From a bacterium (GTDB taxonomy: Bacteria; Vulcanimicrobiota; Xenobia; Xenobiales; Xenobiaceae): a DNA stretch of 64,000 nucleotides. Below, piece by piece: positions 10,386 to 54,720 of the stretch (positions are counted from its first letter, which is position 1; every line of letters starts with the position of its first letter). A program made the position numbers and the translations under genes. The DNA is taken from assembly GCA_017458675.1 (NCBI GenBank), contig JAFTAM010000016.1, positions 15 through 64,014 of the forward strand. Reading direction: 5' to 3'. The notes under the pieces are model-generated. The model was not told the origin of the DNA, ran no database searches, and saw nothing but the letters and a program-made list of their open reading frames with translations.

Positions 10386-10474
10386 ATGCAGCTCCGCCGC
10401 CGTCTCAATTATTTATACGTTTAAAAGCAGGCCCGCTTCAAAACGCGGGCAGACCGCCGCACGGAAACCCGCCG

Positions 10475-23955: not shown

Positions 23956-23985
23956 ACCCCTCCTAATAGAGGCCCGTACAGGCCT

Positions 23986-25014: not shown

Positions 25015-25016
25015 AC

Positions 25017-31166: not shown

Positions 31167-33855
31167 AATATCTTTAACCGTAATTATCTGCATTGTGGGA
31201 TTTCTTTTACTGACGCAGAACCTGCAGGCCTGCCGGCCGGCCGATTATGCCGACTCCTTCCCCAAAATGCTCCTGCTGATTTTGGGAATTGCGCTGGAAA
31301 CGCACCCTATACGCTTCGTTCCGTTCGGACGCTTCAGCTGCGCCTGGGCCTGCTGGCTGGCCCTGGCTCTGGCCGTTCCCGGCAATATTCCCCTTCTCTG
31401 GGCAGTCATATTTCTATGTATGCTGACAGAGCGCCTGAGATTATATTTTTCAGCGAAACGCTCAGTTCATACCGCAGCCGCCTCCGCTGAAAACGCAGTT
31501 AAATCTGTTTTTACCGCTCCCTATCTGACGGAAACGCCTGAAAAGCAGCGGCAGGAATGCAGGCCGGCTGAAACCGCCCTGCTCCTTTCCGCCTGCAGTC
31601 TGCTGACTCTGACGGTATCTCTCTGGATTCTGGCTCAGAGCGGCTGCTCGCCGGAAACGGCGGCTGACGCAGGCCTCAATGCTCTCCGAGGGGACGTACG
31701 CTTTACCGATGCCGAGCTCTTGCCGCCGGCCGTTATCGGCCTTTATCCGCTGCTCAACACCGTTCTGCCCTTTATATTTATTCCCGGCCTAAAAGCTGCG
31801 GCAGAGCCTGAAGCGGCTATGCGCCGGCAGCGTCTCTCCGTCTGCGAGCTGAGCCTGGGCATTCTGGGGCTGGCCGCCTATAAAAGCCTGAACGGCGATT
31901 TCTGTTTATTTGTTCTGATTACGGTCGCCGTAATCAGCTGCCGCGCCTGGGGCTTTGCCGTCTTTCAGAGCGAAGACTGGCTGCGCAGCCGGCGTCTCAG
32001 CAGAAGCCTGGAGAATAAAGACAAAAAGCTGCTTGCCGTTCAGAAGGACTGCAGCGATCTATCCATACAGCTTCGCAGCGATCGTCAGGAGCGCCAGCTT
32101 GTCAATATTATCGAACAGGAACTGACCCTGAGAAATAACGGAGAGACTTTAAAGACAGCCTTAGAACTTACCGCCAAAATGGTAAATATCGAACAGGCTG
32201 CCATTTTCGGCAGCCGCAGCGGCCGTCTGGTTCCCCGCTTCTATATTAAAGAGGACGAGCTTCTCAAAAACTGGGATCTATTGGACCTTCAGGACCCTCT
32301 CCTGAATATGGCCTGCTGCCGCCGGACGGCTGTTACTCTGCAGGAATTGGCAGAATCAGATCTGCAGCTGCCGCCCGGTCCATTTGCTTATCCCTTTCAG
32401 ATAGCCGTATTTATGGCGGAAGGTTCCGTTCTTTGGCTGGCCCGCTCACATAAAGAATTCAATGACAGAGAAATACGCCTCTTAAAAGAAGCCGCCTTAA
32501 AAATCGGCCTGGCCGACCGTGAATCGCAGCATGCCGAGGATCTGCAAAAGCAGCTGCAGGAGCTGGCTCAAGCCAACGCCTATTTGTCAGCCTGGAATGA
32601 GAGAATCAACGAATTTATGGCCGGCCTTAACCGGGCGCTGGATTTGAGCGGCAGCCGGGCTGCTTTAAATGAAATTGAAAGTCTCGTCAAAACCATTATT
32701 GAAGCAGACTGCGTATGCTTCGTATTCGGCGGAGAAAACGACGGCGAAAAAGAGCAATCCGACTGCGAAAGAGAAGCGGCTCCGCCGCCTCAGCCTGTTT
32801 CAGCGGAAAGCCGCCGCTCGCTTGAGGAACTGCGCCGCTGCGTCTGCCGCAACCGACGTCCCCTGCTCATTGACGATCTCAGAGGAAGCAGATTTAAGCC
32901 TCCCCATCCTGAAATAATTTCGATCCTGGCAGTGCCCGTCATGAGCCGCTATCTGAGCGAAGAGTGCGATTCCGACGAACCTGACAAATGCCGCGCCGTA
33001 AGCGACGCCGTCATCCTGGGCGCCTGCCGAACCGACGCCTTTTCCCGACAGGATCAGGACATTATGCAGCTGCTGGCCGAACGCCTGGACGTTATATTGC
33101 GCAGCCGCCGTCTGCAAATGCAGCTGCAGAGGGCCAATCAGGATCTGAAGAAATCGCAGGCCTCCCTGATCCAGTCCGGCAAAATGGCGGCCATAGGACA
33201 GATGGCCGCAGGTCTGGCCCATGAGCTTAACACCCCTCTGGGTTCGGTAATTCTGGGCATCGATTCCGCCGCTCTCAGTCTGAAGCGTGAAAAGACGCAG
33301 ACCGCCGCCGAAAGGCTGGATACCGCCAAAAAAGCCGCTCAGCACGCGCAGAGCATCATAAAAAATCTGCTCTATTATTCGCGGGAGGAAGCTCAGAAAG
33401 ACCTCCGTCCCATCAATTTAAATCTGATCATAGACGACGCCATCGCTTTAATCGGACACAGGCTCAAAAAATGCGGCCTTACCGTCAGAAAAACTTTGGG
33501 AGAGCTCCCTCTATGCACAGTCAACCGCAGCGAAATGCAGCAGGTCTTTACCAATTTAATACTCAACAGCTGCGACGCCGTAAAGGACAGCCCCGAACCG
33601 CATATTTTGGAAATCAGCTCGCATATAGATTCAAAGGGACTCGTCGAGCTATGCTTTAAGGACAACGGCTGCGGCATAGCCCCCGACCATTTAAAGCGTA
33701 TATTTGAGCCCTTTTTCACCACCAAGGAGCCAGGCTGCGGCACGGGTCTCGGCCTCTCCGTAAGCCGGGAGATTCTCTCCAAACTGAACGGCGAGCTCCT
33801 GGCCGAATCGTGCCCCGGGAGCACCGTATTCACGGTAAAGCTGCCCTGCGGATAA
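31153..33855 (+). CDS. Sensor histidine kinase (multi-TM N-terminus, GAF-like middle region, HisKA + HATPase_c)
   Basis: H-box MAAGLAHELNTPLGSV; N/G boxes FTNLILNSCDAV, DNGCGI, GCGTGLGLSVSREIL; overlaps the RR stop by 14 nt. Confidence 0.9.
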   Translation: MKSYKISLTVIICIVGFLLLTQNLQACRPADYADSFPKMLLLILGIALETHPIRFVPFGRFSCAWACWLALALAVPGNIPLLWAVIFLCMLTERLRLYFSAKRSVHTAAASAENAVKSVFTAPYLTETPEKQRQECRPAETALLLSACSLLTLTVSLWILAQSGCSPETAADAGLNALRGDVRFTDAELLPPAVIGLYPLLNTVLPFIFIPGLKAAAEPEAAMRRQRLSVCELSLGILGLAAYKSLNGDFCLFVLITVAVISCRAWGFAVFQSEDWLRSRRLSRSLENKDKKLLAVQKDCSDLSIQLRSDRQERQLVNIIEQELTLRNNGETLKTALELTAKMVNIEQAAIFGSRSGRLVPRFYIKEDELLKNWDLLDLQDPLLNMACCRRTAVTLQELAESDLQLPPGPFAYPFQIAVFMAEGSVLWLARSHKEFNDREIRLLKEAALKIGLADRESQHAEDLQKQLQELAQANAYLSAWNERINEFMAGLNRALDLSGSRAALNEIESLVKTIIEADCVCFVFGGENDGEKEQSDCEREAAPPPQPVSAESRRSLEELRRCVCRNRRPLLIDDLRGSRFKPPHPEIISILAVPVMSRYLSEECDSDEPDKCRAVSDAVILGACRTDAFSRQDQDIMQLLAERLDVILRSRRLQMQLQRANQDLKKSQASLIQSGKMAAIGQMAAGLAHELNTPLGSVILGIDSAALSLKREKTQTAAERLDTAKKAAQHAQSIIKNLLYYSREEAQKDLRPINLNLIIDDAIALIGHRLKKCGLTVRKTLGELPLCTVNRSEMQQVFTNLILNSCDAVKDSPEPHILEISSHIDSKGLVELCFKDNGCGIAPDHLKRIFEPFFTTKEPGCGTGLGLSVSREILSKLNGELLAESCPGSTVFTVKLPCG

Positions 33856-33976: not shown

Positions 33977-34942
33977 GTGAATGACGCTATCCGCTTGCCT
34001 TTTTACGACAAACAGGAATATCTGAAAAACCTAAGGCCTATCAACGACCTTATGTTTCGCCTCTGCGCTAAATCCAAAAGCTGGTGCGAAGAGCTGCTGC
34101 GCACAGTTTTCGACGACGGTAAACTTACAGTAGAAGAAAACTGCGTTCAGTACGATTTAGCCAATCCCGGCCGCCGTTCCGTCATTCTGGACGCCAAATG
34201 CCGCTTAGGGAACGGCGATCTGGTTAATATCGAAGTTCAAACCGGCGAGCACGGCGATCATCAGAGAAGAGTACGTTTCCATTCTGCCCTGCTGACCGCC
34301 GAATCCAGCCTGCCTCAGATGGATTTTGCGGATATTCCCAATGTCTGCATAATTTATATATGCGAATTTGATATTTTCGGCTACAATAGTCCTATATATA
34401 AGGTTGACCGCGTGCTGCGCGGCTTCGGCGATGTATTGGATAACGGCTGTACGGAAATATACATAAACGCGCTGGCCAGGGACAATTCCAAAATTTCTCG
34501 GTTAATGGAGATTTTCGTAAACCGGGACGCCTATAACTTTGAAGATTTTGCCAATATTTCCACAATCAAACATTACTTTTTCAACTCTCGGAAAGGACAG
34601 GAAGAAATGGACGAAGCTCTGGAAAATTTATTTAAGGGCAGTTTAGCCCAGGTCAAAGCGGAAGCAATAGCTCAAGGTTTAGCTCAAGGCATGGCTCAAG
34701 GCATTGCTCAAGGCAAGGCTCAAGGAATTGCTGAAGGCAAGGCTCAAGGTATTGCTGAAGGTAAGGCTCAAGGTATTGCTCAAGGCAAAAAAGAAGGCAT
34801 AATATCCGTATTTATCAATCTGGTGAAGGACGGATTAATTTCTGTAGGCGAAGCCTGCAGACGCGCTGAGATATCAGAGGAAGCGTTCAAAGCTTTTATG
34901 GAAAAATACAGCCAGGAACAGGCTCAGATACAACATAACTGA
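33977..34942 (+). CDS. Rpn-family recombination-promoting nuclease / putative transposase (PD-(D/E)XK, YhgA-like) with C-terminal (AQGI/AEGK)n repeat
   Basis: N-terminal YhgA-like region (PINDLMFRLC...NIEVQTGEHGDHQRRVRFHSALL); 12-nt periodic gctcaaggxattgctcaaggc repeats encoding AQGLAQGMAQGIAQGKAQGIAEGKAQG; GTG start with GGAGGTG RBS. Confidence 0.8.
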   Translation: MNDAIRLPFYDKQEYLKNLRPINDLMFRLCAKSKSWCEELLRTVFDDGKLTVEENCVQYDLANPGRRSVILDAKCRLGNGDLVNIEVQTGEHGDHQRRVRFHSALLTAESSLPQMDFADIPNVCIIYICEFDIFGYNSPIYKVDRVLRGFGDVLDNGCTEIYINALARDNSKISRLMEIFVNRDAYNFEDFANISTIKHYFFNSRKGQEEMDEALENLFKGSLAQVKAEAIAQGLAQGMAQGIAQGKAQGIAEGKAQGIAEGKAQGIAQGKKEGIISVFINLVKDGLISVGEACRRAEISEEAFKAFMEKYSQEQAQIQHN

Positions 34943-35063: not shown

Positions 35064-36752
35064 TTAGAGTCTTGCCTCTTCCGGCTCAGCTGTTTTTTCA
35101 GCTTCAGCGCCTTTGGCGCCGTCAGCTTGAATTTCCGCTGCGGGTACCTCGGGAGAACCTTTCGCTTCAGAGACGTCGGCAGAATCTTCCGCCTTTTCAC
35201 CCTGCTGAGCCTGGGCGGCAAGCACGGCCTGGCTGGTTCCGGTCTTCGACCACCATACCGAATAGGCAAGAATCAGAATTGCCGTCGTAAAGCCAACGCC
35301 GGCCATTACATACCACATGTAGGGCGCGTGATGGCTCTGATACATAATCTGCGTCAGTTCCTGGGGAGTCTGGCCGCTGAGCTCAATTAAACGGCTGAAA
35401 GCTTCGCCGTGAGGAACGGCGGCGGCCTCGTCGGCAGGAAGCAGGTTCATGGAAGCGATCAGTTCCCGGGAGAAATTGTCCTTAGAGGAAAAGAAATCGT
35501 AGAGCCTGGGACCTACAAAGCCCTCCAGAGTAGAGCCGATGGCAAAGGACATCTGAGCCAGACCCAGATACATGGCCTTTTTATCGCTCGAAGCCAGATG
35601 CGTGCCCACGAACTCGCTGAACTTGGGGCTGGAAAGCATTTCGCCTACGCTGAAGACGGCGATGGCCATTAAACAGGTCCAGCCCATATGGGAAAGACCC
35701 AAAAGACACATAGCCAGCGCGGCCAGCGAAGTACCCAGAGCGATGCTGCGCAGGATCTTCATCTTGGAGGAAACCCAGGCAAAGAAGAAACAGGTCGTCA
35801 TAATCAGCGCGCAGTTGAGGTTCATCATGCCCTCTGGCTGCACATAGGACTTGGTCTTGTCCAGGATCATCACAAAGCCTATAATCTTGTTGTCCATGCT
35901 GAAGAACTGCGAAACTGTGCTCACCACGTCCCGGCTGTCCACCCAGTCGCGGATGTACAGCGGCAGAACGTCGAAGAGGCAGTTGAACATGAAGTAAAAG
36001 CCTGTGAAGATTGCCAAAAAGACGCACAGATGGGGACGCTTGAGCTCGTTCCAGGTATCGGCGGCCAGACTGCGCTGCTTGATATTCTTTTCCTTAAGCT
36101 CCTTCTGACGGGCCAGACGCTCCTCCAAACCGGGCTCCTTATAAGTAAGAAGCAGAATGAAGTTGCAGGCGATGATGGCGGCGCAGGCAAAGAAAACGTG
36201 GCTCCACTCCATCTTGCGCAGGAAACCGGCCATCAGGGGACCGATAAAACCTCCGATATTTACGGTCTGATAGAAGACGCCCCAGGCCATGGAGCTGTTC
36301 TCCGGCTTGGTGCTTTTGGCCAATGTGCCCTGAATGCCCGGCTTAAAAATAGCCGTACCGGTGGCCAGACAAATGGCGCCCGCCAAAAATCCGTAAAAGG
36401 TGGGGAAAAAGGCCATTATCAGATAAGCGGTCATCTTGACTACCGTGGAGATGCCGATCATCAGCTTATAGCCGTAACGATCGGCCAGACCGCCCACAAA
36501 GATAGGCACAAACCCCTGGAATCCCGACCACACCATCAAAATGATGCCGAACTTGGCGGCGGTTATGCCCAAGCCGCCCTCAGAGGCCGCGGTGGTGGCA
36601 TAGAGACCGGCCACGGCGCGCACGCCGTAATAGGCCAGTCTTTCTACCATCTCCATGGCGCCGACTATCCAAAATACATAACCCAGGCTCAGGATAGCCG
36701 CAAAAAGCCCTAGCTGCTTTATATCGGTATTGCTGCCTTTAGCTTCCGTCAT
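35064..36752 (-). CDS. Proton-dependent oligopeptide transporter (POT/PTR2 family, DtpT-like) with charged C-terminal tail
   Basis: PTR2 signature GAMEMVERLAYYGVRA (ExxERFxYYG); 12+ TM MFS fold. Confidence 0.85.
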   Translation of the reverse strand: MTEAKGSNTDIKQLGLFAAILSLGYVFWIVGAMEMVERLAYYGVRAVAGLYATTAASEGGLGITAAKFGIILMVWSGFQGFVPIFVGGLADRYGYKLMIGISTVVKMTAYLIMAFFPTFYGFLAGAICLATGTAIFKPGIQGTLAKSTKPENSSMAWGVFYQTVNIGGFIGPLMAGFLRKMEWSHVFFACAAIIACNFILLLTYKEPGLEERLARQKELKEKNIKQRSLAADTWNELKRPHLCVFLAIFTGFYFMFNCLFDVLPLYIRDWVDSRDVVSTVSQFFSMDNKIIGFVMILDKTKSYVQPEGMMNLNCALIMTTCFFFAWVSSKMKILRSIALGTSLAALAMCLLGLSHMGWTCLMAIAVFSVGEMLSSPKFSEFVGTHLASSDKKAMYLGLAQMSFAIGSTLEGFVGPRLYDFFSSKDNFSRELIASMNLLPADEAAAVPHGEAFSRLIELSGQTPQELTQIMYQSHHAPYMWYVMAGVGFTTAILILAYSVWWSKTGTSQAVLAAQAQQGEKAEDSADVSEAKGSPEVPAAEIQADGAKGAEAEKTAEPEEARL

Positions 36753-36769: not shown

Positions 36770-38503
36770 TTATTTTTTGCTCTCTTCGCCCCCGCCTTTA
36801 GCCTTATCAGTCCCGCCGTCTGCTTCCGCTGTTCCGACGGCGCCCTTATCTGCCTTAACCTCTGCTCCGGTTTCTTTCTGCGCTTCCGCAGTTTCGGGAG
36901 CAACCTTAAAATCTTCCGCATCCCTTTTCGAATCGGCCTCAGACGCAGCGGCTTCTGCAGGTTCCCCGGTCTTTACAGCCTTATCCCCGGCATGGCGTCC
37001 GTACCACACTGAATAAGCAAACATCGCCAAAGCCGTAAGCAGACCGATAGCTCCGAAGAAGAACCAGACATTGGCTACGGCAAAATCGCTGTACATCTGC
37101 CTGGTCAGCACGTCGGCAGAAATACCGCTGACCTCCGTTAAACGCTCAAAGGCTTCTCCGGGAGGTATAGCCTCCAGCTGGTCGGCGTTCATATTGTAGG
37201 CTTCGCCCAGCAGCTTTCGGGCAAAAGTATCTTTAGAGGAAAAGATCTCGTAAATAAACGGTCCGAAATAACCCTCGAGGGTGGCGCTCACCGCATAAGA
37301 GACCTGAGCGATGCCCAGATAGGTGGCCTTTTTATCGTCAGGGGCCAAATAGTTGCCCACAAATTCACTGAATTTAACATTGGAAAACATCTCGCCCAGA
37401 GTAAAGACTACTACGGCCAGGGCGCAGATCCAGCCCATATGGGATACGCCCAGCAGAGCCATGGAAGCGGCCACAAAGACGAAACCCAGGGAGATACTGT
37501 GCAGAATCTTCATCTTAGATGACAGATAAGCAAAGATAAAGCAGACCGTCATAATGATGGCGCAGTTTATGTTGAGCATTCCCTCAGGCTGAACAAAGCT
37601 GCCGGTTTTATCCAGAACCATGATGAAGCTGATTATCTTATTCTTAACGTCAATATGCCAGGAGGTCAGAGTATTGACAATATCGGTGCTGTTGACCCAG
37701 TCGTTGATGTGCAGGGGCAGAATATCGAACATATAGCTGTACAGCAGATAAAAGCCCGAAAATATAAACAGGAACAAATACATTTTCGGGTCCTTAATTA
37801 CTTCAGCGCCGTTTTTCAGCAACGCTCCGAAGCCCTGACGCTTCTTCTCGTTCTCAGCCTTCAGCTGCTCGCGCTCCTCGCGGCCGGGCTCCTTATAGGT
37901 AAGCAGAATCAGCAAATTAACGCTGCCGACAATGGCGCAGGCCAGAAAGACGTAATCCCAGGACATCTTTCGCAGATAGCCAGCCACCAAAGGAGAAAGG
38001 AAAGCTCCTAAATTTACGGCCTGATAAAAAAGTCCCCAGCCCAGAGAGGAGTTTTCCGGATTTGTGGCCTTTGCTACCGCTCCCTGAACGCTTGGGACCC
38101 AGAAGGAGGTTCCTACCGCCAAAACGACTACGCTCACCAAAAAGCTCCAAAAATCGTGGCAGAAGATCATCATGACAAACGAGGCGGTCTTCAGAAGGGT
38201 TGAAACGCCCATCATCAGCTTATAGCCGTATTTATCGGCTAAGCCGCCTATAAAAAACGGCAGAAAGCCCTGCAGCGCAGACCATACCGCCAGGATAACT
38301 CCCAGCCGGGCGACAGTTATGCCCAAGCCGCCTTCAGCCGAGGGAATTACCGCATACAGCATAACCAGCGAGCGAAGGCCGTAAAAGGCCAGGCGCTCCA
38401 CCATTTCCATTCCCCCCAGACACCAAAACATGTAGCCCAAACTGGCCAAAGCGGCCCATAGACCTAAATTACCGGAATTTTCCTTAACTTTGTCCTGCGG
38501 CAT
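36770..38503 (-). CDS. Proton-dependent oligopeptide transporter (POT/PTR2 family), tandem paralogue
   Basis: GGMEMVERLAFYGLRS; collinear similarity to 35064-36752; acidic/Lys-rich C-terminal tail. Confidence 0.85.
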   Translation of the reverse strand: MPQDKVKENSGNLGLWAALASLGYMFWCLGGMEMVERLAFYGLRSLVMLYAVIPSAEGGLGITVARLGVILAVWSALQGFLPFFIGGLADKYGYKLMMGVSTLLKTASFVMMIFCHDFWSFLVSVVVLAVGTSFWVPSVQGAVAKATNPENSSLGWGLFYQAVNLGAFLSPLVAGYLRKMSWDYVFLACAIVGSVNLLILLTYKEPGREEREQLKAENEKKRQGFGALLKNGAEVIKDPKMYLFLFIFSGFYLLYSYMFDILPLHINDWVNSTDIVNTLTSWHIDVKNKIISFIMVLDKTGSFVQPEGMLNINCAIIMTVCFIFAYLSSKMKILHSISLGFVFVAASMALLGVSHMGWICALAVVVFTLGEMFSNVKFSEFVGNYLAPDDKKATYLGIAQVSYAVSATLEGYFGPFIYEIFSSKDTFARKLLGEAYNMNADQLEAIPPGEAFERLTEVSGISADVLTRQMYSDFAVANVWFFFGAIGLLTALAMFAYSVWYGRHAGDKAVKTGEPAEAAASEADSKRDAEDFKVAPETAEAQKETGAEVKADKGAVGTAEADGGTDKAKGGGEESKK

Positions 38504-38650: not shown

Positions 38651-41323
38651 TTATAAATTGCTGCTGCGGTTCTTAAAGAGACGGAAACCTCCCCTGGCGC
38701 TGTCCTGCGAAGTCGTAACCTCCTCGCCGCGGACCTGCTTTTTAACTATCTCCGACCACTCCTTATGCTCGCGCTCATACAGCTGCTGCTGCTCAAAGAG
38801 AGCCTTCTTGAGACGGTCCAGCTCTTCGCGCAGCCCGGAGGTTTCCTGTCTGGCGTCTTCAAGCATGCGGTCTTTGACCTCAGTCTCGGCCTCGAGAGCC
38901 TGCAGCTCGGCCATGAGATCCTCGGGAGCGTCAAAACCTGCAGCGGCGTCTTTATTATCCAGCTCATAGCGCAAAGCTTCGATCTCCTCTCGGAGTTCCT
39001 CATTCTGAGCCGTCAGCTCGTCCAGTTCGCCGCCGACCGGCTCCTCAGCCAACTGACGTTCCGCTTCCTGAAGCTTATCTTTAGCGTCCTGAAGCTCGTT
39101 CTGCAGATTCCGAATCATTTGCTCGGCCGCTTCTATTGCTCCGTCTGAATTCTTAGAGCCGGAATTGCCGAGCTGAGCCGTCAGATCCTCATTCTTAGCC
39201 TGCAGACTGCTTACAAGTCTGAGCAGCTTAGTTTTTTCAGCTTCCATATTGCTGCTGAAGAGAGCGCTCTCAGAACTTATCTGAGCCACTATCTCTCTCT
39301 GCTGCTGAAGCTGATCCTGCAGAGACACGATCTCCTTCTGCGCTTCCTGCAGGGCTTGGTCATTGGCGGAAGCAGAATCGCTCTGCTCTTCCTCCAAAAC
39401 TTTCAAACGGGCGCGGCATTCTTCAAGTTCTTCTTTAAATTGCTCGTTCTCAGCCTCCGCCTTCTCCAAAGCCGCTTCAGCCTCGGCGGCCTTGGCTTCG
39501 TTAGCCTCATTGGCTTCACTGAGCTCAGCCAGCTGATTTTCCAGTTCTTCAGCTTTAGCTAAAGCCTCTTGCTCGCTGCGGGCGGCTTCCTCCACCATGG
39601 ATTCCAACTCGTCCATCTGAGCGCCTGAAGAAGTAGAAGCTGTGCGCACGGCGACAAGCTCCTCCTGAAGGCGCTCAGCCTCAGCCTCTTTTTCACTCTG
39701 CAGCGCCGTCAGAGCCTGCACCTCATCGCTGAGTTCCTGATTGCGATCCTTGATAACCAGATACTGCTCCTGTAATTTGAGATAAGTCTCCTTGGCGGTA
39801 TCTGAAGCTTCCTTCAGCTCGTCATATTCCGCCTTAAGTTTATCATAAGCTTTATCTGAAGATCCCAGCTGGTCAATCTGCTCGCTGAAATTCTTATTCT
39901 CTTCCTTCAGGCGGCCGTTCTCGCTCTGGAGCTTATCAACCATAAGCTGAAGCGTCGAAGTTTCCTCTTCGCAGGCTTCATAACGGCCTTCCAGAGTTTC
40001 TATATATATCTTTAATTCTTCGACATGCTCGACTATCTTCTGAGCAAAATCCTCATTGCTCAGACTGTGCGCGTCAAGAGGCTCGCGCAGAGCTTCCAGA
40101 CGGTCCAGAATGGCTGCGACATTGTTCTTAGCCGCATATTCGGCATGCTCCGCCACAAAGCGCTCATGTTCAATGCGGACGTTATTGTATTTTTGCAGCA
40201 GAAGATCGTATTTTTTCTGAAGCCCGTCTAAATTTGTTTCCAGTTCTTTGAATCTTTCGGCGTTTTCTTCCCCGCCTAAAGAAATTGTATTGACGTCGGA
40301 TCGTATAGCGTCTAAGTCCTTCTGCAGAGTTTCCCGCAGAGTTTCCAGGTCTGTTTTGCTGATCCCGACGGCGGTCTCCTTATCAGGAGCGGCCTCGGCA
40401 GACTCTCTTTTGGCTAAGCTTGCTTCAATAAAATCCCGCAGCGACGCAAGTTCTTCTCTGACTCCGCCATCAGTGCGGACGGCTTCCGCGTCCGTTTTCA
40501 AGGCGTTCAGCTTTTCTTCTATGCGCGAAAGCATCTTATCGGAGCTGTTGGGAGCGGGAATAGGCAGAGAAGCCACGGGAGCTTCCCGCCGCGATTCGTT
40601 CAGCAGCTTAATAACCCGGGCCTGAGCGCGCATAACCGGCTCCATAACCTTATTAAGGGCCTTTTCAAAATCGGACGTATCGCTTTTTCTGTTCTCGCCG
40701 CCCTTGCCCCCATAACCTTTGATACCGACAAAATTGCCGCAGATTTCCGACTTTTCCGCCAGAGGCTTTTCCATCATGCTGAAGCGCTTCTGAAGCTCGT
40801 ATTCATCGGCGTCCATATCGTAAAGCGAGTCATAATCCAAAGAGATATCGGCGTTTCCGCCGTTCTGGCTGACTACGTCAAACTTGGAGCGCACAACGTT
40901 GGGCGTTCTTTCAGGCATAAACTCCTGGGCTTCGGTCCCCTCGTTCACGTTTTCCTCAGCCATGGAGGCGGCTATCGCCTTAGCGCCGGCCTTGGCGGCG
41001 ATATTAGGAGGCGCAAACGCAGGCGTCTCATTCTCATAGCCGAAATTTTCATATCCGTAATAGCTGGCAGGATCCTCGCCCGTCTCGGAAGGAGACCCGC
41101 CCAAATAACCTCCCTGCGCTGCGCCGGACTTAGCGCCGGACCTCCCTTCTTCATGAGGAACGGAATACTTATCCAGCAGCTTCTGCACCTCTGCGCTGCG
41201 CAGAACCATTTCGCCGGCTCTCCTGGAAGCGGTTAATTTCCCCTCCGATATCCATTCTCTGATAGTATCGGCAGATACGGAAATTAAATCGGCAACTTCA
41301 TCAATAGACAAAAACTTAGACAT
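38651..41323 (-). CDS. Large N-terminal HTH (MerR/excisionase-like) + ~600-aa coiled-coil protein
   Basis: HTH LSIDEVADLISVSADTIREWISEGKL; long E/Q/L/A/K-rich heptad region; start chosen at internal Met (six-frame ORF extends to 41401). Confidence 0.6.
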   Translation of the reverse strand: MSKFLSIDEVADLISVSADTIREWISEGKLTASRRAGEMVLRSAEVQKLLDKYSVPHEEGRSGAKSGAAQGGYLGGSPSETGEDPASYYGYENFGYENETPAFAPPNIAAKAGAKAIAASMAEENVNEGTEAQEFMPERTPNVVRSKFDVVSQNGGNADISLDYDSLYDMDADEYELQKRFSMMEKPLAEKSEICGNFVGIKGYGGKGGENRKSDTSDFEKALNKVMEPVMRAQARVIKLLNESRREAPVASLPIPAPNSSDKMLSRIEEKLNALKTDAEAVRTDGGVREELASLRDFIEASLAKRESAEAAPDKETAVGISKTDLETLRETLQKDLDAIRSDVNTISLGGEENAERFKELETNLDGLQKKYDLLLQKYNNVRIEHERFVAEHAEYAAKNNVAAILDRLEALREPLDAHSLSNEDFAQKIVEHVEELKIYIETLEGRYEACEEETSTLQLMVDKLQSENGRLKEENKNFSEQIDQLGSSDKAYDKLKAEYDELKEASDTAKETYLKLQEQYLVIKDRNQELSDEVQALTALQSEKEAEAERLQEELVAVRTASTSSGAQMDELESMVEEAARSEQEALAKAEELENQLAELSEANEANEAKAAEAEAALEKAEAENEQFKEELEECRARLKVLEEEQSDSASANDQALQEAQKEIVSLQDQLQQQREIVAQISSESALFSSNMEAEKTKLLRLVSSLQAKNEDLTAQLGNSGSKNSDGAIEAAEQMIRNLQNELQDAKDKLQEAERQLAEEPVGGELDELTAQNEELREEIEALRYELDNKDAAAGFDAPEDLMAELQALEAETEVKDRMLEDARQETSGLREELDRLKKALFEQQQLYEREHKEWSEIVKKQVRGEEVTTSQDSARGGFRLFKNRSSNL

Positions 41324-41479
41324 GACTTTTTTATTTTCTAGATAAGCTCCTTGTTTCCTATTCGGCAGAGATACAACTCCCCAATTACAATATTGCGTCA
41401 AGCGCCGACTTCAACCAGGAACGAACAAATTCAATTCAGAAATAGCGAAGGAGCAAAGTTCTGCAAATATGATCTGCAA

Positions 41480-42373
41480 ATGAGGTCTTTAAATATGAAT
41501 TTCAAAAAGAGTTATATTTCTTTGTTAACCGCCGCGCTGCTCTTATCCGGCTCCATAGCCTGCGATCGGCAGCCTGCCAGATCGGACGCTCCGAAAAATA
41601 TAGTTTCCAATACCGGCTTCCAATCCGAAGGTCTGGCGGCCGAGCGCTATGAATCGGTTACGGGACTGGCGGTTTACGGCTCCGCCGGGGATATCAAAGT
41701 GCATTTGGCCGCTCTGGCCGAAAAAGCCCCGGATAATATAGACAGATTCTTTCTGCTGCTCAATTCCAAAGCCCCCAACCAGGCTATTTTAGTACAGGCG
41801 CCTGATGTAATTCCGGCTCAGGCGATAGAAAAGCAGATTAGCAGCAAAGTTACCGTAACCGGCAGCGTTAAATCGGTTAACTGTCCGGACTTGGACAGTT
41901 TCATCAGCAAAAACTTCGGCACCGATTTAGCTAAAACCGCCCAAGGCGAGTTAGCCTACATTGCTGCGGAAGCTCCCTTTGACTTTAATCTGGAGCCCGC
42001 TTCGGAAAAGAAGCAGCAGAAGGTAGAGATTTCTCTCGAAGGCACGCCTCTGGGAGCTCCCGCCAAGCCGGAGACAGAATCCGAAAAGCCGCAGCCCCCC
42101 GCCGCTGAAAATGCCGAATCCGACGGTGCGGCCGTTCCTGCGCAGACTCCCGACAAACCGGTTTCCGCCACCGAACAGATAAAAACCATAGAACCTCCGC
42201 CGGTCTCTCAGGGACACACCGTGCAGGCCAAAGCGCTCCCCAAAGCTGACGCAGGCAGCCGCCAGCCGGAAGCGCAGGCTCCGCAGGAAGCGCCTCCCGC
42301 CGAACCTGCGCCCACACCCATAGCTTCGGAAGCGGACCGTCCTTCCGATCTGCCCACTCCCGTACAGTATTAG
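41480..42373 (+). CDS. Secreted/lipoprotein-like protein with Pro/Ala/Glu-rich low-complexity C-terminus
   Basis: Signal peptide MNFKKSYISLLTAALLLSGSIAC; start moved to an internal Met to remove overlap with the divergent upstream gene. Confidence 0.5.
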   Translation: MRSLNMNFKKSYISLLTAALLLSGSIACDRQPARSDAPKNIVSNTGFQSEGLAAERYESVTGLAVYGSAGDIKVHLAALAEKAPDNIDRFFLLLNSKAPNQAILVQAPDVIPAQAIEKQISSKVTVTGSVKSVNCPDLDSFISKNFGTDLAKTAQGELAYIAAEAPFDFNLEPASEKKQQKVEISLEGTPLGAPAKPETESEKPQPPAAENAESDGAAVPAQTPDKPVSATEQIKTIEPPPVSQGHTVQAKALPKADAGSRQPEAQAPQEAPPAEPAPTPIASEADRPSDLPTPVQY

Positions 42374-42424: not shown

Positions 42425-44083
42425 ATGGCACTTCCTAAGATAGATGAATTCAAGGTTAATCTGCAGATTTTTAATACCGAAGCCCTGCATGCGGACTTTG
42501 CTCCCTGGAAGCGCAGCGAACGCGGTCAGCAGGTTTATATAAAGCTGCTTAAAGACGATCAGACCGCCCTGCTTTACGTAGGTGAAAATTGCGTTTTGGA
42601 CGCTCAGATGCAGCAAATTCTTATGCGTCTGGTCAACGACGGCTGGAGCGTAGCCGGCGAAATGACCGTCAGCTTTGACGGCAACAGCGATCCCGGCATC
42701 GATCCTTACGTCTATCAGGACCCCATAGTCGTAGAGCTGGGACGCGGCCTGCTGCCTCTGGTAGACCCCCAGTGCGGAGCTCCCTTAGTGCAGGCGATGC
42801 CCCATCTGCGCGACGAAATTGCCAGAGAATCCGGCTTAGTCCCCGCCGGCATCAGAATCAAAGACAACTTAAAGTTAGATCAGTATCAGTATAAAATTTT
42901 GCTGAAAAACTCTCCCCTGACCGACGGAGAAATATTCCTGGACCGCTTTTTGGCCATAGGCTCCTTTGACCAGCTTTCTTCCCTTGAAGGCTGGAGCGCC
43001 GTCGAGCCCACCTATCGCATGAAAGCCAAATGGATTCTGGAGAATCAGAGAGAAAAGGCAGAGAAGCTCGGCTGCGTCCTGGTAGGCCCCCTCCAGGTGC
43101 TGCTGACCCATATCAAGGGGCTGATGCTGGAATCTGCGCCCGAGCTGCTCGGTCTGCAGGATACCTTCAACCTTATCTCCCGCCTGCAGATAACTCATCC
43201 GGTCGTAGTCGAAGAATTTATCACCAATTACAAAAATCTGCGGGCTCTGCGCAAGATCCTCCAGAACCTGCTGAGGGAGCGCGTAGCTCTCAGCAATCTG
43301 GTGACTATTCTGGAAACCGTAGGCGACAATCTTGACAATATTCAGGAGACGGAAATCGTGGTTGAGGCCTGCCGCCAGGCCCTGGCCAGACAGATCTGCA
43401 GCGCCAACCTCAATCAGAACAACGAATTGCTGGCCATCATCACCGGTCCGGAAATCGAGGGTTTAATTGCCGAGCTGAAGGAAATGAATTACATCAACCC
43501 CATCGGCAGCACCGACTTTGAAGAAAAAGCCGACATTGTGGCCTACGCTCTGAAATCAGGTTTGGAGGAAGCCGGAAATCCGCCCGTAGTCGTAACCGAC
43601 GGCAGACTGCGCAACTTCCTCTCCCGCCTCATCGCTTCCGACCTTCCCGGCTTATGCGTTCTCTCCACTCAGGAAGTGACTCTGGGCCACGTTAAATTGA
43701 TCGTCAACGGCGTAGCCGATCTCAAGGACAATAAAATTCAGAGCGAGCCTCAAAGCTTCGAGGGAGACGAAGTCGAAAGCGTCGACAGCGAATTTATCGA
43801 CGAAAACGGCGAAGAGGCTGCCTCCGAATTGATACCCGAAGCCGACGAAGAGCAGGTTGAAGAGATAAAAGAGGAAGAGCTTAACAGCATACCGGAGGAC
43901 CTGAGCTCAGAAAGCGGCGACGATCCCAAAGTCCCGGAAGCGGACAAAACCGCCGAACTGGAACAGGCAGAAGCTGAAAAAGAGAGTCAGCCAGCCGATA
44001 CGGAAGAACAGGAAGCCAAAGACGCTCCCGAAGATAAAAGCGCCATAAAGGTGGATAATATTCTGAGCTTCCTCAAAAAATAG
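42425..44083 (+). CDS. Standalone FlhA/SctV (FHIPEP) cytoplasmic-domain homologue lacking the transmembrane export-gate domain; acidic C-terminal tail
   Basis: Collinear match to the FlhA linker + cytoplasmic domain: DPIVVELGRGLLPLVD...LRDEIARESGLVPAGIRIKDNLKLDQYQYKILLKN (cf. FlhA DPLELEVGYRLIPMVD...IRDNMDLQPARYRILMKG); ILQNLLRERVALSNLVTILETV (cf. VLQNLLDEKVPIRDMRTILETL); PPVVVTDGRLRNFLSRLI...LCVLSTQEV (cf. PVLLVNHALRPLLSRFL...VVLSNLEL). No TM helices in the ORF; AAGAGGA RBS. Confidence 0.75.
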   Translation: MALPKIDEFKVNLQIFNTEALHADFAPWKRSERGQQVYIKLLKDDQTALLYVGENCVLDAQMQQILMRLVNDGWSVAGEMTVSFDGNSDPGIDPYVYQDPIVVELGRGLLPLVDPQCGAPLVQAMPHLRDEIARESGLVPAGIRIKDNLKLDQYQYKILLKNSPLTDGEIFLDRFLAIGSFDQLSSLEGWSAVEPTYRMKAKWILENQREKAEKLGCVLVGPLQVLLTHIKGLMLESAPELLGLQDTFNLISRLQITHPVVVEEFITNYKNLRALRKILQNLLRERVALSNLVTILETVGDNLDNIQETEIVVEACRQALARQICSANLNQNNELLAIITGPEIEGLIAELKEMNYINPIGSTDFEEKADIVAYALKSGLEEAGNPPVVVTDGRLRNFLSRLIASDLPGLCVLSTQEVTLGHVKLIVNGVADLKDNKIQSEPQSFEGDEVESVDSEFIDENGEEAASELIPEADEEQVEEIKEEELNSIPEDLSSESGDDPKVPEADKTAELEQAEAEKESQPADTEEQEAKDAPEDKSAIKVDNILSFLKK

Positions 44084-44085
44084 CG

Positions 44086-45213
44086 ATGAAGAAGAGCGCC
44101 GTCTATATTCTGCTTAACCTGCTGGCCTGTTTTGCCGCCGCTTTTGCTCTGTCGACCTGGACTCTGCCCGATCTGGGCGATTCAAACCTGCTGCCGGTTC
44201 TGATGTCCTTCTGCGGTTTGGCTCTACCTCTGCCGTTGGGCGTTCTGGCCGATAAATTCGATCACAACGCCGCCGTAACCGCCGCAGGCTGTCTGGTCAT
44301 ATCCCTGGCCTTTGCCTTTGACGGCATGTCCATTCCGGTCGCCGCGCTCAGCGGGCTGGGGATAGCCCTGCTGCAGGCGGGAACGGCGGCGGAGATTTTA
44401 GGCGTCTGGCCGGAGCGGATAACGCCGGTGGGACTTTTCATGGGAGGCAGCCTTTTAGGTTTTGCTTTGGGTATGTACGCAGGCGGCCCAGCTAAAGAGA
44501 TATCCTACGCGGCGCCTCTGTTTTCGCTCTTTTTGTTTACCGTTTTGTTTGTAATTTTCAATTACAAAACCAATCCCCAGTTTGTTTCGGAAAATCCTGA
44601 TTTTAAATTAACTAAAATTCCCAAAAAGGCTTTTATCGCACTGATTTTGATATCAGCCGCAGCCGCTCTGCATCTGTATGTAAAAATAACCACCTCGGAG
44701 GCTCTGTGGCTTAACAGCTACAGGCTTTATGCCGCCTTTGCCGGCGCCTTCGGCCTGGCCCTGGGCGCCTTTCTGGCCGATCGCTTCGGATTGATGAAGA
44801 CGACGCTTTTCAGCACCCTGTCAGCCGCTCTGCTGTTCATGTTCTTCGATAAACCGCTCTGCGGCCTGCTGGCTCTGCTGGCTTTCCACTGCACAGTTCC
44901 TGTTTTAGTGTGGGTCTGCGGAAAACTTTGGAAAGATAAAAGAGCGGCCTCCTTCGGAGTATTCTCCCTGGGCGCTTTTTTCGGAGCCCTTCCTCTCTGC
45001 TTCGGCTGGCGGCCCTTGACTTCGCATACCGTGTGCGCCGCTGTCTTTTTAGGCTGCGCTTACGCCGCTCTGCGGCTGGCATACGATATGCTTCATCCCA
45101 TCGATCAGACCTCGCCCAAGGCCATGCAGACCGCCATAATCGAACGTCATAACCCCTTAAAAGTCGCCGCCAAAGAAAAAGAGCCGCTCCCGCCGGAGCA
45201 GCCCGAATCATAA
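44086..45213 (+). CDS. MFS-type membrane transporter (12 TM)
   Basis: MFS motif-A-like GVLADKFD and LGAFLADRFG in each half; highly hydrophobic; starts 3 nt after the FlhA-C-like stop. Confidence 0.65.
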   Translation: MKKSAVYILLNLLACFAAAFALSTWTLPDLGDSNLLPVLMSFCGLALPLPLGVLADKFDHNAAVTAAGCLVISLAFAFDGMSIPVAALSGLGIALLQAGTAAEILGVWPERITPVGLFMGGSLLGFALGMYAGGPAKEISYAAPLFSLFLFTVLFVIFNYKTNPQFVSENPDFKLTKIPKKAFIALILISAAAALHLYVKITTSEALWLNSYRLYAAFAGAFGLALGAFLADRFGLMKTTLFSTLSAALLFMFFDKPLCGLLALLAFHCTVPVLVWVCGKLWKDKRAASFGVFSLGAFFGALPLCFGWRPLTSHTVCAAVFLGCAYAALRLAYDMLHPIDQTSPKAMQTAIIERHNPLKVAAKEKEPLPPEQPES

Positions 45214-51746: not shown

Positions 51747-52121
51747 TTATTCAGCTTCAGCAATATCATACGGGAATTCCGGTTCTGTTCTGAAGTCCGC
51801 TCCGAATTCAGAAAAAGCTCTGACATACTTTATTATCTCTTTCGCCTTCCCGCTTATGACAAAATCCGAACTTTGCAGCAGGGATTTTGCCTCAAGATAA
51901 TTGCACTGCCTGAGCTTAGCCAGGCACTTGATCACATTGAGCTGCGGGCGGTCCGTTTTTGGAATGGTTACCGTATAAACGGTTTTATCAGCTTTAATCG
52001 GCGAAAAATATGTTGTCGCCCAACCCCATCCACACTTAGGACAAAGCATCCCACAGGAGCCAGACTCATGATAATATTCCATCAATTCACCGCATTTTTC
52101 ACAACAAGTAGTTTCAGTCAC
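51747..52121 (-). CDS. Small zinc-ribbon protein with C-terminal domain resembling ribosomal protein L7/L12 C-terminal fold
   Basis: CxxC...CxxC (CEKCG...CPKCG); C-terminal NVIKCLAKLRQCNYLEAKSLLQSSDFVISGKAKEIIKYVRAFSEFGADF patterns like L7/L12 CTD (NVIKvvRe.tGLgLKEAKdLVe.aP.vvKegvsKeEAeeiKkkLEeaGAkV). Confidence 0.5.
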   Translation of the reverse strand: MTETTCCEKCGELMEYYHESGSCGMLCPKCGWGWATTYFSPIKADKTVYTVTIPKTDRPQLNVIKCLAKLRQCNYLEAKSLLQSSDFVISGKAKEIIKYVRAFSEFGADFRTEPEFPYDIAEAE

Positions 52122-52633
52122 TGCTTTCCTCCTGGATAAAATTTTTTAAAACATCCTCTATTACTATAATCTGGCTTCTTAGGTGCATCTTGCCTACTTC
52201 CGGCTACGAAATACCTACCATTTGGATAAACCCACACTTTTTTTGTAGGTGCTTCAACGATAACGTTTAGTTTGTTAGCAAGATTTTGAGCAAAACCTTC
52301 AGATTCTGCACCAGTGTCACAAGAGAACAAACGAATTGATTTGTTTTTTAAATCTGAGTTTTTCTTAAATATCTTAGAGGCCATTCGATGATCAATTTCA
52401 ATAGAAATGCCATTATTCTGAATCTCAATAGTAGTAGAAGTTCCATGAGCAATAACATCATAAAATCCGTTTCTGTCAATATCTTTGCGTTTACGGATAA
52501 ATTTACTGAAATTATCATTAAAAGACATATAATCTACACTACCAGGAACAGCCAAACTACCATATGTGTTTGAATAAATTCCACTTTTTCCAGCTCCCAT
52601 TTTTACATCCGCCTCTTTCTGCAAGAAATCCAA
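52118..52633 (-). CDS. Hypothetical 171-aa protein with His...Cys dyad arrangement (VIAHGT ... RLFSCDTGA) suggestive of a caspase-like (clan CD) peptidase/toxin domain
   Basis: Conserved-looking HG then xCxxG spacing typical of the caspase/gingipain/CPD fold; overlaps neighbours by 4 and 31 nt (operon). Confidence 0.45.
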   Translation of the reverse strand: MDFLQKEADVKMGAGKSGIYSNTYGSLAVPGSVDYMSFNDNFSKFIRKRKDIDRNGFYDVIAHGTSTTIEIQNNGISIEIDHRMASKIFKKNSDLKNKSIRLFSCDTGAESEGFAQNLANKLNVIVEAPTKKVWVYPNGRYFVAGSRQDAPKKPDYSNRGCFKKFYPGGKQ

Positions 52634-53277
52634 TCAGGATAATGCACAAATTTAGTTTTGTTAATAACATCTGCAAAAATGGAATCAGGCATTGCACCAT
52701 ATACAAGTACAACTTCTGGCAGTAATTCTTCTAACATTGCCTTAAGACCATGTTTAAAAAAATACTTATCTTCTCTGCTACGAATTCCTCCATAAGTGCC
52801 TATAGACACAATACTATGCTTCGGAATTCCAAGGAATGCGAATTTTTCTGGAAGTATTTTTGTAGTATAACTACGTTCATCACCCCAGCGAATATTCGGT
52901 ATTACATAAACGCCACGTTTTTGATAATAATAGCCCACTGCACGATTTCTATAAGTATTTGACATCTGTGCTTGCAGAGGCATGTCACGATACAAAGAAT
53001 TATCTAATGTAACAATACCTGCAAAAGTTTTTATCAATTCATAGTACTTCTCAGGATTTTTTAAAATATCACTAAACTCAATATCATATTCATAAAACGT
53101 GACAAATTCAGAATGATCGCCACTTTGAGAAATTTTAGAAAATGGAATCACACGTTTAGGGATAATAATTTCCGATGGTTTCTCAATACAAGGCATTTCA
53201 AGAATACCATCAAACTTTGCGCCTTCAACAAATTCAGGATTAAAGCCATCATCAATTATAATTTTATGTTTAGGCAT
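52603..53277 (-). CDS. Hypothetical 224-aa protein (island cargo, first gene of three-gene operon)
   Basis: AT-rich ORF; no domain confidently recognised. Confidence 0.5.
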   Translation of the reverse strand: MPKHKIIIDDGFNPEFVEGAKFDGILEMPCIEKPSEIIIPKRVIPFSKISQSGDHSEFVTFYEYDIEFSDILKNPEKYYELIKTFAGIVTLDNSLYRDMPLQAQMSNTYRNRAVGYYYQKRGVYVIPNIRWGDERSYTTKILPEKFAFLGIPKHSIVSIGTYGGIRSREDKYFFKHGLKAMLEELLPEVVLVYGAMPDSIFADVINKTKFVHYPDWISCRKRRM

Positions 53278-53499
53278 AATAGCTCCATTCTACTTAAAAA
53301 CGCAACATAAAACCGTATCAATCAATAAAGTACACAGATTATTAATTGACAAAATAATATAAATGTGCTATTATGCAATATAGTTATATGTGTTCAATAG
53401 CACTTAACATTAAAACGCATGTTTTTACTGCGGCAACAGTTAATTCGTGCGTTTTTCTATTTTACAGGTAAAACATTGCAATTTAAGTATAGATAATAA

Positions 53500-54597
53500 T
53501 TAATCTCTAAATAAAGAAAGAAGATCGTAGTAAAAATACAAACGATTTCTTTTTTTACCATCTGTAAATAATAACCCCCTTTCAACCATAATATTCAAAT
53601 ATCTATTAATTGTCGCTAAAGGAATGCCTGTGAATTCATGTAAAAGTCTAGCATCAAATATCGGCATCTGATATATCCCATCAATGATTTTAACTATACT
53701 GCTAGATGATTTAATAAGTCCACATGCTATTTCCATATGCTTTGAATATAACTCATTAACATTAGAAATTATTTGAACATATTTTTTACATTGCTTTGCG
53801 ATAATATCTAAAAAAAATTTAATCCAATCATTCCATTTTTCAGGCAAACGCGTATCATTCAACATTTTGTAATATTTAAGTTGATCTCTTTCAAGCGCCT
53901 CACTAATAAAGAAATAAGGAAGTTCTAACTGTGATTGAAAATAAAGATATAAAGGAATCAAAATCCTGCCAACACGTCCATTTCCATCACTAAAAGGATG
54001 AATAGTTTCAAATTGCGCATGAACAATAGCAACTCTAATCAATGGATGAATTCTATCTGTAGGTGAATTTAAATATTGAATAAAATCTTTCATTAGCTGT
54101 GATACTCGTTCTGGCTCTGGTGGAATATAAACAAGTGTTCCATCATTTTTTCCAACATAATTTTGATGATCTCTATATTCGCCTACAGAATTTTCATTTT
54201 TTCTTACTTTTCCACTCATTAATTGTTTATGTATAATCTTAAAAAAATCATCAGAAAAATCCCCTCTTTTAAGCATATGAAACCCAATTTGCGTAGCTGT
54301 AAAATAATTATCTACTTCATTTAAATTTTTATTATCCTCATCACGTACAATTTTATTAATTAATACACCATCTAAAGTAGCTTGAGTTCCTTCCATCATA
54401 GAAGATTTCATAGCTTCTTTTTGTTGTAAAGTTGGCATAAACCAATTTGGATTAACTTTACTGTCTTTAATTTTTTCCTTATAAACTTCAAACATCGATA
54501 CTGCCTGAATTAATTCATCAAGAAATACACTATAATCCAGAATTCCATAGGCTTCCGGTAATGGTTTTGGCGCATAAGGTTTTTTCATATTACTCAA
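53500..54597 (-). CDS. Fic family protein, class II-like (canonical HPFSDGNGRVGR motif plus N-terminal inhibitory SxxxEG motif SSMMEG)
   Basis: HPFxDGNGRxxR at ~res 200; [ST]xxxE[GN] at ~res 65; AT-rich codon usage unlike the host genes. Confidence 0.85.
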   Translation of the reverse strand: MSNMKKPYAPKPLPEAYGILDYSVFLDELIQAVSMFEVYKEKIKDSKVNPNWFMPTLQQKEAMKSSMMEGTQATLDGVLINKIVRDEDNKNLNEVDNYFTATQIGFHMLKRGDFSDDFFKIIHKQLMSGKVRKNENSVGEYRDHQNYVGKNDGTLVYIPPEPERVSQLMKDFIQYLNSPTDRIHPLIRVAIVHAQFETIHPFSDGNGRVGRILIPLYLYFQSQLELPYFFISEALERDQLKYYKMLNDTRLPEKWNDWIKFFLDIIAKQCKKYVQIISNVNELYSKHMEIACGLIKSSSSIVKIIDGIYQMPIFDARLLHEFTGIPLATINRYLNIMVERGLLFTDGKKRNRLYFYYDLLSLFRD

Positions 54598-54720
54598 TAT
54601 TTTATCTCCTAAATCATAGAATACTCTAATATAGAATCATTGTCAATAGTTTTTGAGCGGGATTTTCTTTTTTTTTATTTATAAAGTCAATATCAATACA
54701 TTATTGTCATAAAATATTCT

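Follow-up and report, generated by a model that had tools for sequence, protein, structure and literature searches.

A membrane-less family of FlhA cytoplasmic-domain proteins in Xenobia, probably a flagellar part reused for another job

What can the cytoplasmic ring of a type III export gate do once the gate itself is gone? The question is raised by a single gene in a 64,000-nucleotide stretch (hereafter the window) of contig JAFTAM010000016.1, assembly GCA_017458675.1, from a bacterium of the family Xenobiaceae (Vulcanimicrobiota, class Xenobia). To our knowledge, FlhA and its relative SctV are generally viewed as obligate integral-membrane components of the type III export machinery, and we know of their cytoplasmic ring only as a platform for sorting substrates and chaperones under the gate. 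The gene at positions 42425–44083 encodes a protein that holds the FlhA cytoplasmic domain (FlhA_C) and no membrane domain, and it belongs to a conserved, selected Xenobia family with a new domain of its own, in which part of the flagellar apparatus has probably been put to a different use. The gene and its parts are as follows.

42425–44083, forward strand: membrane-less FlhA_C family gene, 552 residues; NCBI MBQ7501232.1, annotated 'FHIPEP family type III secretion protein [bacterium]'.
42425–42682, forward strand: N-terminal alpha/beta domain, residues 1–86; family-specific, strand–strand–helix–strand, predicted with high confidence.
42683–42721, forward strand: linker equivalent to FlhA_L, residues 87–99; consensus E-P-G-x-D-P-Y-V-Y-x-D.
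42722–43714, forward strand: FlhA_C fold with subdomains D1–D4, residues 100–430; placed by Pfam and TIGR matches, PDB alignments, Foldseek and a ratio of non-synonymous to synonymous substitution rates (dN/dS) of 0.023.
43715–44044, forward strand: disordered acidic tail, residues 431–540; predicted local distance difference test score (pLDDT) below 50, with length and sequence varying across the family.
44045–44080, forward strand: hydrophobic–basic C-terminal motif, residues 541–552 (IKVDNILSFLKK); a candidate amphipathic membrane-targeting or partner-binding peptide.

An earlier note on this DNA had read the open reading frame as collinear with the FlhA/FHIPEP cytoplasmic domain and as devoid of the export-gate membrane domain, and had proposed a profile search as a check. 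Pfam, TIGR01398 and PDB alignments all bear out the collinearity, and the sequence blocks quoted in the note were reproduced. The protein scores 222.5 bits with Pfam FHIPEP (PF00771, E = 1.4e-65), well above the gathering score of 29.1 bits, and its residues 95–419 align with profile positions 327–653 of 657, which limits the match to the linker and the cytoplasmic half. The FlhA equivalog model of NCBIfam, TIGR01398, gives 239 bits on model positions 338–667 and fails its cut-off of 772; the SctV equivalog models score much lower again and fail all of theirs. With the Pfam threshold passed and the equivalog cut-offs failed, the protein is FHIPEP at the domain level and neither an FlhA nor an SctV equivalog, a verdict to which the tested absence of the membrane domain and the missing operon context contribute alongside the cut-off. 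In phmmer searches against all PDB chains, the alignments are gap-poor and collinear, with FlhA_C of B. subtilis (3MIX, 1.3e-48), of Salmonella (6AI0/3A5I, ~4e-36) and of H. pylori and Vibrio; SctV homologues are aligned as well, at 1e-26 or weaker, which leaves the family nearer to flagellar FlhA than to SctV.

An AlphaFold2 model, built from an alignment of 94 family sequences, is confident for residues 1–435 (pLDDT mostly >90, and >90 over residues 100–430) and disordered from residue 439 on. Compared by Foldseek with Salmonella FlhA_C, it reaches TM-scores of 0.82–0.90, the best match being 6CH1 (0.89–0.90, E = 5.9e-28). With the FlhA_C structures considered (3A5I, 6CH1, 3MIX and 7AMY) the family shares a collinear linker and subdomains D1–D4, at 27–28% identity to the Salmonella domain, together with the signature residues G368, D376, R391, D409–N410, R436, W465 and H491 and the GxQ motif, a structural signature of FlhA (Salmonella numbers equal query numbers plus 262). 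Counted over the 94 aligned members, the equivalents of E366, D376, D409, R436, W465 and H491 are invariant, those of G368 and R391 are kept in 93 and that of N410 in 89, and GxQ is conserved. At the chaperone dimple, the equivalent of D456 is D or E in all 94 members, that of F459 is Y, H or F in 87 and that of T490 is T in 70, while the V404 equivalent is G, P or S; these substitutions suggest that the chemistry of the dimple has largely been kept.

The remainder of the cytoplasmic part carries hints of oligomerization. At linker position 89, 88 of the 94 members have E or D, and at position 93, 86 have D; the acidic–aromatic motif E-P-G-x-D-P-Y-V-Y is, we presume, reminiscent of the E351/W354/D356 segment of Salmonella FlhA_L. 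Conservation is similar in subdomains D1a, D2 and D3 (0.63–0.65) and lowest in D4 (0.49). The linker motif, and the fact that D3 is conserved about as well as D1a and D2, hint at a nonameric ring. SctV proteins (InvA, YscV, MxiA, EscV and CdsV) share the cytoplasmic fold with the family, as well as the expected nonameric ring architecture; they differ in being more distant (E = 1e-26 to 1e-9, 18–23% identity) and in having a membrane domain, and no injectisome genes lie near the family.

Where FlhA has an N-terminal eight-helix membrane domain of about 330 residues, the family has instead a unique soluble domain of 86 residues. A 19-residue Kyte–Doolittle scan found no transmembrane-like segment in the 552-residue protein, in which the top window (1.61) falls in a buried helix belonging to the FlhA_C fold, and no hydrophobic or transmembrane segment in any of the approximately 100 family members; the canonical FlhA matches have 66–99 windows above 1.6. 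Six-frame translations of the entire window and of every family locus contain no FHIPEP membrane domain, so that the upstream or frameshifted membrane domain considered in the earlier note is found in none of the frames; the FHIPEP alignment starts only at profile position 327. Residues 1–86, in which the same note had recognized no domain, are not a spacer but a conserved folded domain, with near-invariant residues F25, P27, W28, G34, Q36, K40, G53, L69, N71, G73, W74, G78, F84 and G86. Searched against 1.84 billion representative proteins, its profile matched 16 clusters only, always at positions 1–92 of proteins of 427–496 residues or in short fragments, and the domain is thus exclusive to the family and stands where the membrane domain would be. 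A structure search returned no known fold relative for it.

The C-terminal end differs from FlhA too, in a disordered tail with a terminal hydrophobic–basic motif. Residues 420–552 are 32% D/E with a net charge of −31 and are predicted to be disordered, so the highly acidic tail described by the earlier note is present; it fails as a defining feature, because tail length runs from 4 to 122 residues across the family and the version of about 120 residues is confined to three members, namely those of the species itself, its closest relative (P0002) and P0020, the others having 4–75 residues. Compared with an 85%-identical orthologue, 51 of 105 tail residues are identical, as against 11 of the last 12. 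A terminal motif of the form (K/R)(K/R)-E-G-hydrophobic-hydrophobic-G-F-L-K-G, or a variant of it (for example ILSFLKK, EGFMGIFKK, KEGVFGFLKG, KGFFSFLK or KFWxK), is present in about 70 of the 94 members. We retrieved the terminus of E. coli MinD, which ends ...RFIEEEKKGFLKRLFGG: the MinD peptide (...EEEKKGFLKRLFGG) and the family examples EEKKEAKGFFGFLK and KEKKEGVLGFLKGG both sit at the extreme C terminus after acidic and basic residues, and both have a short G-hydrophobic-hydrophobic-x-x-hydrophobic-K/R core. Set beside the actual E. coli sequence, the likeness to a MinD-type membrane-targeting peptide is thus real at the motif level, as a short motif likeness alone and with no homology. 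The C-terminal peptide of FtsZ, where a disordered linker leads to a conserved partner-binding peptide, is an equally good analogy for the family tail.

How distinct is the family, and is the gene sound? In a search space of 5.8 billion protein clusters, about 100 proteins of 423–553 residues share the architecture (37–87% identity, E = 0 to ~1e-70), after which scores drop sharply to canonical FlhA of about 700 residues (≤37% identity, E ~1e-50); by these scores the family is discrete from canonical FlhA. Nei–Gojobori estimates of dN/dS between the window gene and the 85%-identical orthologue in locus L036 are 0.023 for the linker and FlhA_C, 0.14 for the N-terminal domain and 0.19 for the tail, values that point to a real gene under strong purifying selection. 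No model dedicated to the family or its N-terminal domain exists in Pfam (2025 copy) or NCBIfam release 20, and full-text literature searches found no description of an FlhA family without transmembrane segments.

The surroundings of the gene provide the next line of evidence, and the following features flank it.

38651–41323, reverse strand: divergent gene for a helix-turn-helix (HTH)/coiled-coil protein, 890 residues from its ATG; HTH_17/MerR-like N terminus and a long coiled coil.
41324–41494, no strand: intergenic region between the divergent units; promoters presumed from the geometry.
41495–42373, forward strand: upstream lipoprotein gene in the same operon, 292 residues; locus tag IJT93_00750, annotated hypothetical.
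44086–45213, forward strand: downstream gene for a polytopic membrane protein, 375 residues; its start lies 3 bp past the stop codon of the FlhA_C gene.

Family loci were drawn from NCBI, ENA and Logan assemblies with 10-kb flanks. Iterated searches with hidden Markov models place the HTH/coiled-coil, lipoprotein and FlhA_C genes together in 24 of about 29 distinct loci, and the gene, which the earlier note had called an orphan, therefore belongs to a conserved three-gene module. In the lipoprotein, a signal peptide (...LLLSGSIAC) is followed by a conserved domain of about 150 residues and then by a Pro-rich tail. Read by eye, a signal peptide with a lipobox Cys is present in four divergent orthologues (...LLLSGSIAC, ...LLTSAC, ...TMVGC and ...LFSGC). 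A homologue lies immediately 5′ of the FlhA_C gene in most loci, at a distance of 2 bp or with a 4-bp overlap in several and at 51 bp in the window. A homologue search confirmed the gene call and returned four close 'hypothetical' relatives only, and the protein has no relative in Pfam, NCBIfam or the PDB. A second, diverged lipoprotein paralogue lies just 3′ of the FlhA_C gene in some UBP9 loci (L014, 7760–8506; L016, 7585–8505; L017, 7701–8510; L029, 5457–6209), and in L029 this downstream paralogue is the sole copy detected.

The HTH/coiled-coil protein matches Pfam HTH_17 (E = 5.3e-07) and has a conserved C-terminal block (LYEREHKEWSEIV) and a terminal GGFRLFKNR motif. Homologues of 326–1011 residues occupy the same divergent position in 24 distinct loci and have in common the HTH, the block LYE(R/K)E.KEWSE(I/V) and a terminal GG(F/W)xLF(K/R); the protein of the window terminates in GGFRLFKNRSSNL, and orthologues end in GGFKLFRNR, GGWGLFRPK and KGWNPFRREK. 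This hydrophobic–basic ending resembles the terminus of the FlhA_C protein itself. A homologue search with the conserved C-terminal block gave no matches. We take the overall layout to recall chromosome-anchoring proteins such as RacA. Between the two divergent units, a promoter scan of 41324–41494 yielded no more sites than shuffled sequence, and tRNA, Rfam and promoter/terminator scans returned nothing informative.

The earlier note had named a secreted Pro-rich protein and a major facilitator superfamily (MFS) transporter as neighbours. The former is there, its Pro-rich part being the tail of the lipoprotein with its signal peptide and Cys; the MFS assignment of the downstream gene did not hold, since the 375-residue protein has no Pfam match at E ≤ 1, and only its orthologue in L001 has a faint precomputed MFS match. 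This membrane protein is conserved after the FlhA_C gene only in the gut/rumen clade. Clear MFS genes, tandem paralogues of 562 and 577 residues, lie at 35064–36752 and 36770–38503, both on the reverse strand; the C-terminal tail of the second is acidic, Lys-rich and of low complexity. Two MFS genes also precede the HTH/coiled-coil gene in the closest relative (L036), and one does in L001.

In basal loci, the module adjoins DUF423, polysaccharide deacetylase, mutL, miaA and hfq genes; in the window, mutL and the deacetylase gene lie about 17 kb from it, and this arrangement suggests vertical inheritance of the module with later insertions. An anti-phage defence role was considered and dropped: PADLOC matched none of the FlhA_C protein, lipoprotein and membrane protein, and picked up only HTH and coiled-coil noise in the HTH/coiled-coil protein. 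A connection with the type II secretion/type IV pilus-like cluster near 23–27.6 kb was rejected as well, as that cluster is not adjacent to the module in other loci.

Do the hosts have a flagellum to which such a protein could belong? Six-frame translations of the window and of all family loci contain no FliP/Q/R, FlhB, FliM/N, MotA/B or FlhF/G; two canonical FlhA operons (L038 and L039), used as positive controls, were fully detected by the same scan. The absence of flagellar and type III secretion genes nearby, on which the earlier note had remarked, therefore extends from the 64-kb window to the flanks of every family locus. The family lies outside the fliOPQR-flhB operon typical of FlhA, and the nearest canonical FlhA proteins are encoded in fliO-P-Q-R-flhB-flhA-flhF-flhG operons (L038 and L039). 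A canonical FlhA was also sought in the assemblies that contain family members, and the closest ones found belong to other assemblies.

Named relatives among the hosts include Candidatus Bruticola (Vulcanimicrobiota, class Xenobia), UBP9 bins and metagenome-assembled genomes labelled Vulcanimicrobiota or Eremiobacterota, with a few under other submitter labels; sources include Hadza gut and goat rumen. Vulcanimicrobium alpinus, the only member of the phylum in culture, lacks both flagella and a flagellin gene and relies on type IV pili for movement (PMC9758169). Candidatus Eudoremicrobium taraoceanii (Eremiobacterota, order UBP9), on the other hand, has flgG, fliI, fliP, flhA, fliS, fliD and flaB, and its flagellar genes are expressed (PMC9259500). 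The phylum is thus mixed for flagella, and the loss of flagella that the earlier note had suggested is not established for the lineage, given the expressed genes of this UBP9 relative. It is very likely that an ancestor had a flagellar FlhA from which the family derives.

Taken together, these observations lead us to a neofunctionalized FlhA paralogue that would serve as a docking or scaffold hub at the membrane surface, an overall picture to which we assign a probability of roughly one half; its architectural part is near certain, its mechanistic part much less so. Of the suggestions in the earlier note, a docking platform repurposed for another system fits the evidence best, as something we infer. 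The eight-helix membrane domain would have been replaced by the small lineage-specific alpha/beta domain, with the linker and FlhA_C kept. The FlhA_C part may assemble into a ring or another oligomeric platform, as FlhA and SctV do, and the MinD-like amphipathic peptide of the tail could hold the protein at the cytoplasmic face of the membrane with no integral domain. The retained D1–D2 docking surface would bind helical partner proteins, the likeliest being the divergently encoded HTH/coiled-coil protein with its conserved C-terminal block as the candidate ligand; the co-transcribed lipoprotein would supply an envelope-side component, and the module as a whole would act as a membrane-associated scaffold or regulatory hub, not as a protein-export gate. 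A more specific version, which we put forward only tentatively, is a cytoplasmic machine of Xenobia in which the export-gate ring domain, freed from membrane and secretion and given a new N-terminal domain and a peripheral amphipathic-tail tether, would work with the DNA-binding coiled-coil protein and the lipoprotein to link chromosome or gene regulation to the envelope.

Several points weigh against this hub. The hydrophobic moments of the terminal motif (0.31–0.72) are unremarkable, the motif is missing in a subclade of about 24 of the 94 members, and the likeness to MinD is that of a short, low-information motif. The five most distant family members stand without the gene trio and have other neighbours, none of them flagellar. 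Direct contact between a lipoprotein and a cytoplasmic protein is impossible, and outside the gut clade the model therefore lacks a component that spans the membrane. Furthermore, carriers of the family may also own a full flagellum, as at least one UBP9 relative does, and a flagellum-linked role would be just as compatible with the chaperone-binding residues that have been kept.

A first rival is a flagellar accessory: the hosts would still assemble flagella, with a canonical FlhA encoded elsewhere in the genome, and the soluble FlhA_C protein would share the ligands of that FlhA (chaperone–substrate complexes of FliS, FlgN or FliT, or else FliJ). In the cytoplasm it could buffer these ligands, serve as a decoy or sense a checkpoint, and so adjust the order of export or the expression of flagellar genes. 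The proximity of the family to flagellar FlhA rather than SctV and the largely kept equivalents of the chaperone-binding residues are what such an accessory would show, and flagellar genes are present and expressed in Ca. E. taraoceanii and were reported for the old WPS-2 bin CARN1. However, in about 30 loci the gene never adjoins a flagellar gene, whereas canonical FlhA sits in fliOPQR-flhBA-flhFG operons; its conserved partners, a lipoprotein and an HTH/coiled-coil protein, are not flagellar; the only cultured member of the phylum lacks flagella and a flagellin gene; and a single K02400 flhA is found among the entries listed for Ca. E. taraoceanii. We consider a flagellar accessory role unlikely on this evidence, though a serious candidate.

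Two further explanations keep the protein closer to a complete FlhA. If the export gate were split, a separate gene elsewhere would supply the FHIPEP transmembrane part and the N-terminal domain would dock onto it and rebuild the gate, which would account for the intact, strongly conserved linker and four subdomains and would give a role to the polytopic membrane protein encoded 3 bp downstream in the gut clade. However, that protein shows no similarity to FHIPEP and does not occur beyond the gut clade. The six-frame scans described above, which covered the window and the family loci, revealed neither a FHIPEP membrane domain nor, close by, FliPQR or FlhB, and a C-terminal peptide of membrane-targeting type would be superfluous in a protein docked on a membrane domain; a split gate is thus very improbable. 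That the gene is a decaying relic of lost flagella, as the earlier note had allowed, or the artefactual remainder of a once complete flhA after a frameshift or misassembly, could be argued from a FHIPEP match confined to the C-terminal half and a TIGR01398 score far under the cut-off, and we regard it as barely credible. A pseudogene or relic was ruled out on the dN/dS of 0.023, in line with the approximately 100 orthologues of the same architecture and the conserved gene order. A frameshift or assembly error was rejected because the upstream open reading frame is a conserved lipoprotein gene with no membrane-domain remnant, the window holds no FHIPEP membrane domain, and about 100 clusters from independent NCBI, ENA, JGI and Logan assemblies share an identical start, N-terminal domain and length; a ribosome-binding site, AAAGAGGA, precedes the ATG.

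The membrane-surface hub can be placed among other export-apparatus domains that occur alone. SctQ-C/FliN-type products are soluble C-terminal domains of a type III component, made by internal translation of the same gene. They are stand-alone domains in the same sense, but work inside their own secretion machine, whereas the family is encoded by a gene in its own right, which has diverged, has acquired new terminal parts and has neighbours that are not flagellar. Closer in kind are tandem double-FlhA_C proteins, P0063 (913 residues) and P0098 and P0134 (925–931 residues), which likewise lack transmembrane segments and occur in the same phylum at non-flagellar loci; they differ in having two FlhA_C domains per chain, no N-terminal domain, HEAT-like segments in P0098 and other neighbours. 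P0063 is encoded at 10001–12742 of locus L034 and P0098 at 922–3699 of locus L035, one being labelled Candidatus Eremiobacterota, and the neighbours of P0063 include a T2SSE ATPase and an AAA ATPase.

A ring domain kept while the gate was discarded would show that FlhA_C can work as a stand-alone module, and the family offers a natural experiment on what that domain does alone in ring assembly, ligand docking and signalling. It adds an example of flagellar parts reused. If the cytoplasmic, non-export machine were confirmed, it would be the first FlhA/SctV cytoplasmic ring to serve a function other than export, and the same innovation would have given rise, as a second offshoot, to the tandem double-FlhA_C proteins. 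For annotation, the labels 'FHIPEP family type III secretion protein' and 'FlhA' can wrongly suggest flagella or a type III secretion system in gut, rumen and soil Xenobia genomes. For the type III secretion field the finding is moderately surprising, in organisms that are uncultured and with a function that is inferred.

The rest of the window is ordinary chromosome, running in order through genes for alpha-2-macroglobulin, rpoD, dnaG, mutL, polysaccharide deacetylase, the type II secretion/type IV pilus-like cluster, a response regulator and kinase, the two MFS proteins, thiI, phosphoenolpyruvate carboxykinase and others. The cluster (22969–27616, reverse strand) includes a PilC/GspF-family protein (T2SSF, E = 8.6e-45) at 23986–25140, followed by open reading frames whose N-terminal methylation (pseudopilin) motifs are weak. 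The cluster is placed between the mutL–deacetylase pair and the module, regions that are adjacent in basal relatives, and thus looks like an insertion. The response regulator, with a BTAD domain (791 residues), and the GAF-HisKA-HATPase kinase (900 residues) occupy 28791–33855 on the forward strand; in L001, the relative from Hadza gut, that response regulator–BTAD gene is likewise found upstream of the MFS and module genes. An open reading frame resembling a PD-(D/E)XK family transposase (33977–34942, forward strand) lies between the gene for the histidine kinase and the MFS pair.

A low-GC island at 52001–54600 (GC 0.32, compared with about 0.52–0.55 around it) carries genes for a DUF4417 protein (52603–53277) and a Fic/DOC protein with a Fic_N domain (53500–54597), and was probably acquired horizontally. 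A second Fic-domain protein, of 415 residues, is encoded at 17763–19010 on the forward strand. The alpha-2-macroglobulin gene (253–6402, reverse strand) encodes 2049 residues with MG2, bait-region, A2M and bMG10 domains and Big_5 Ig-like domains.

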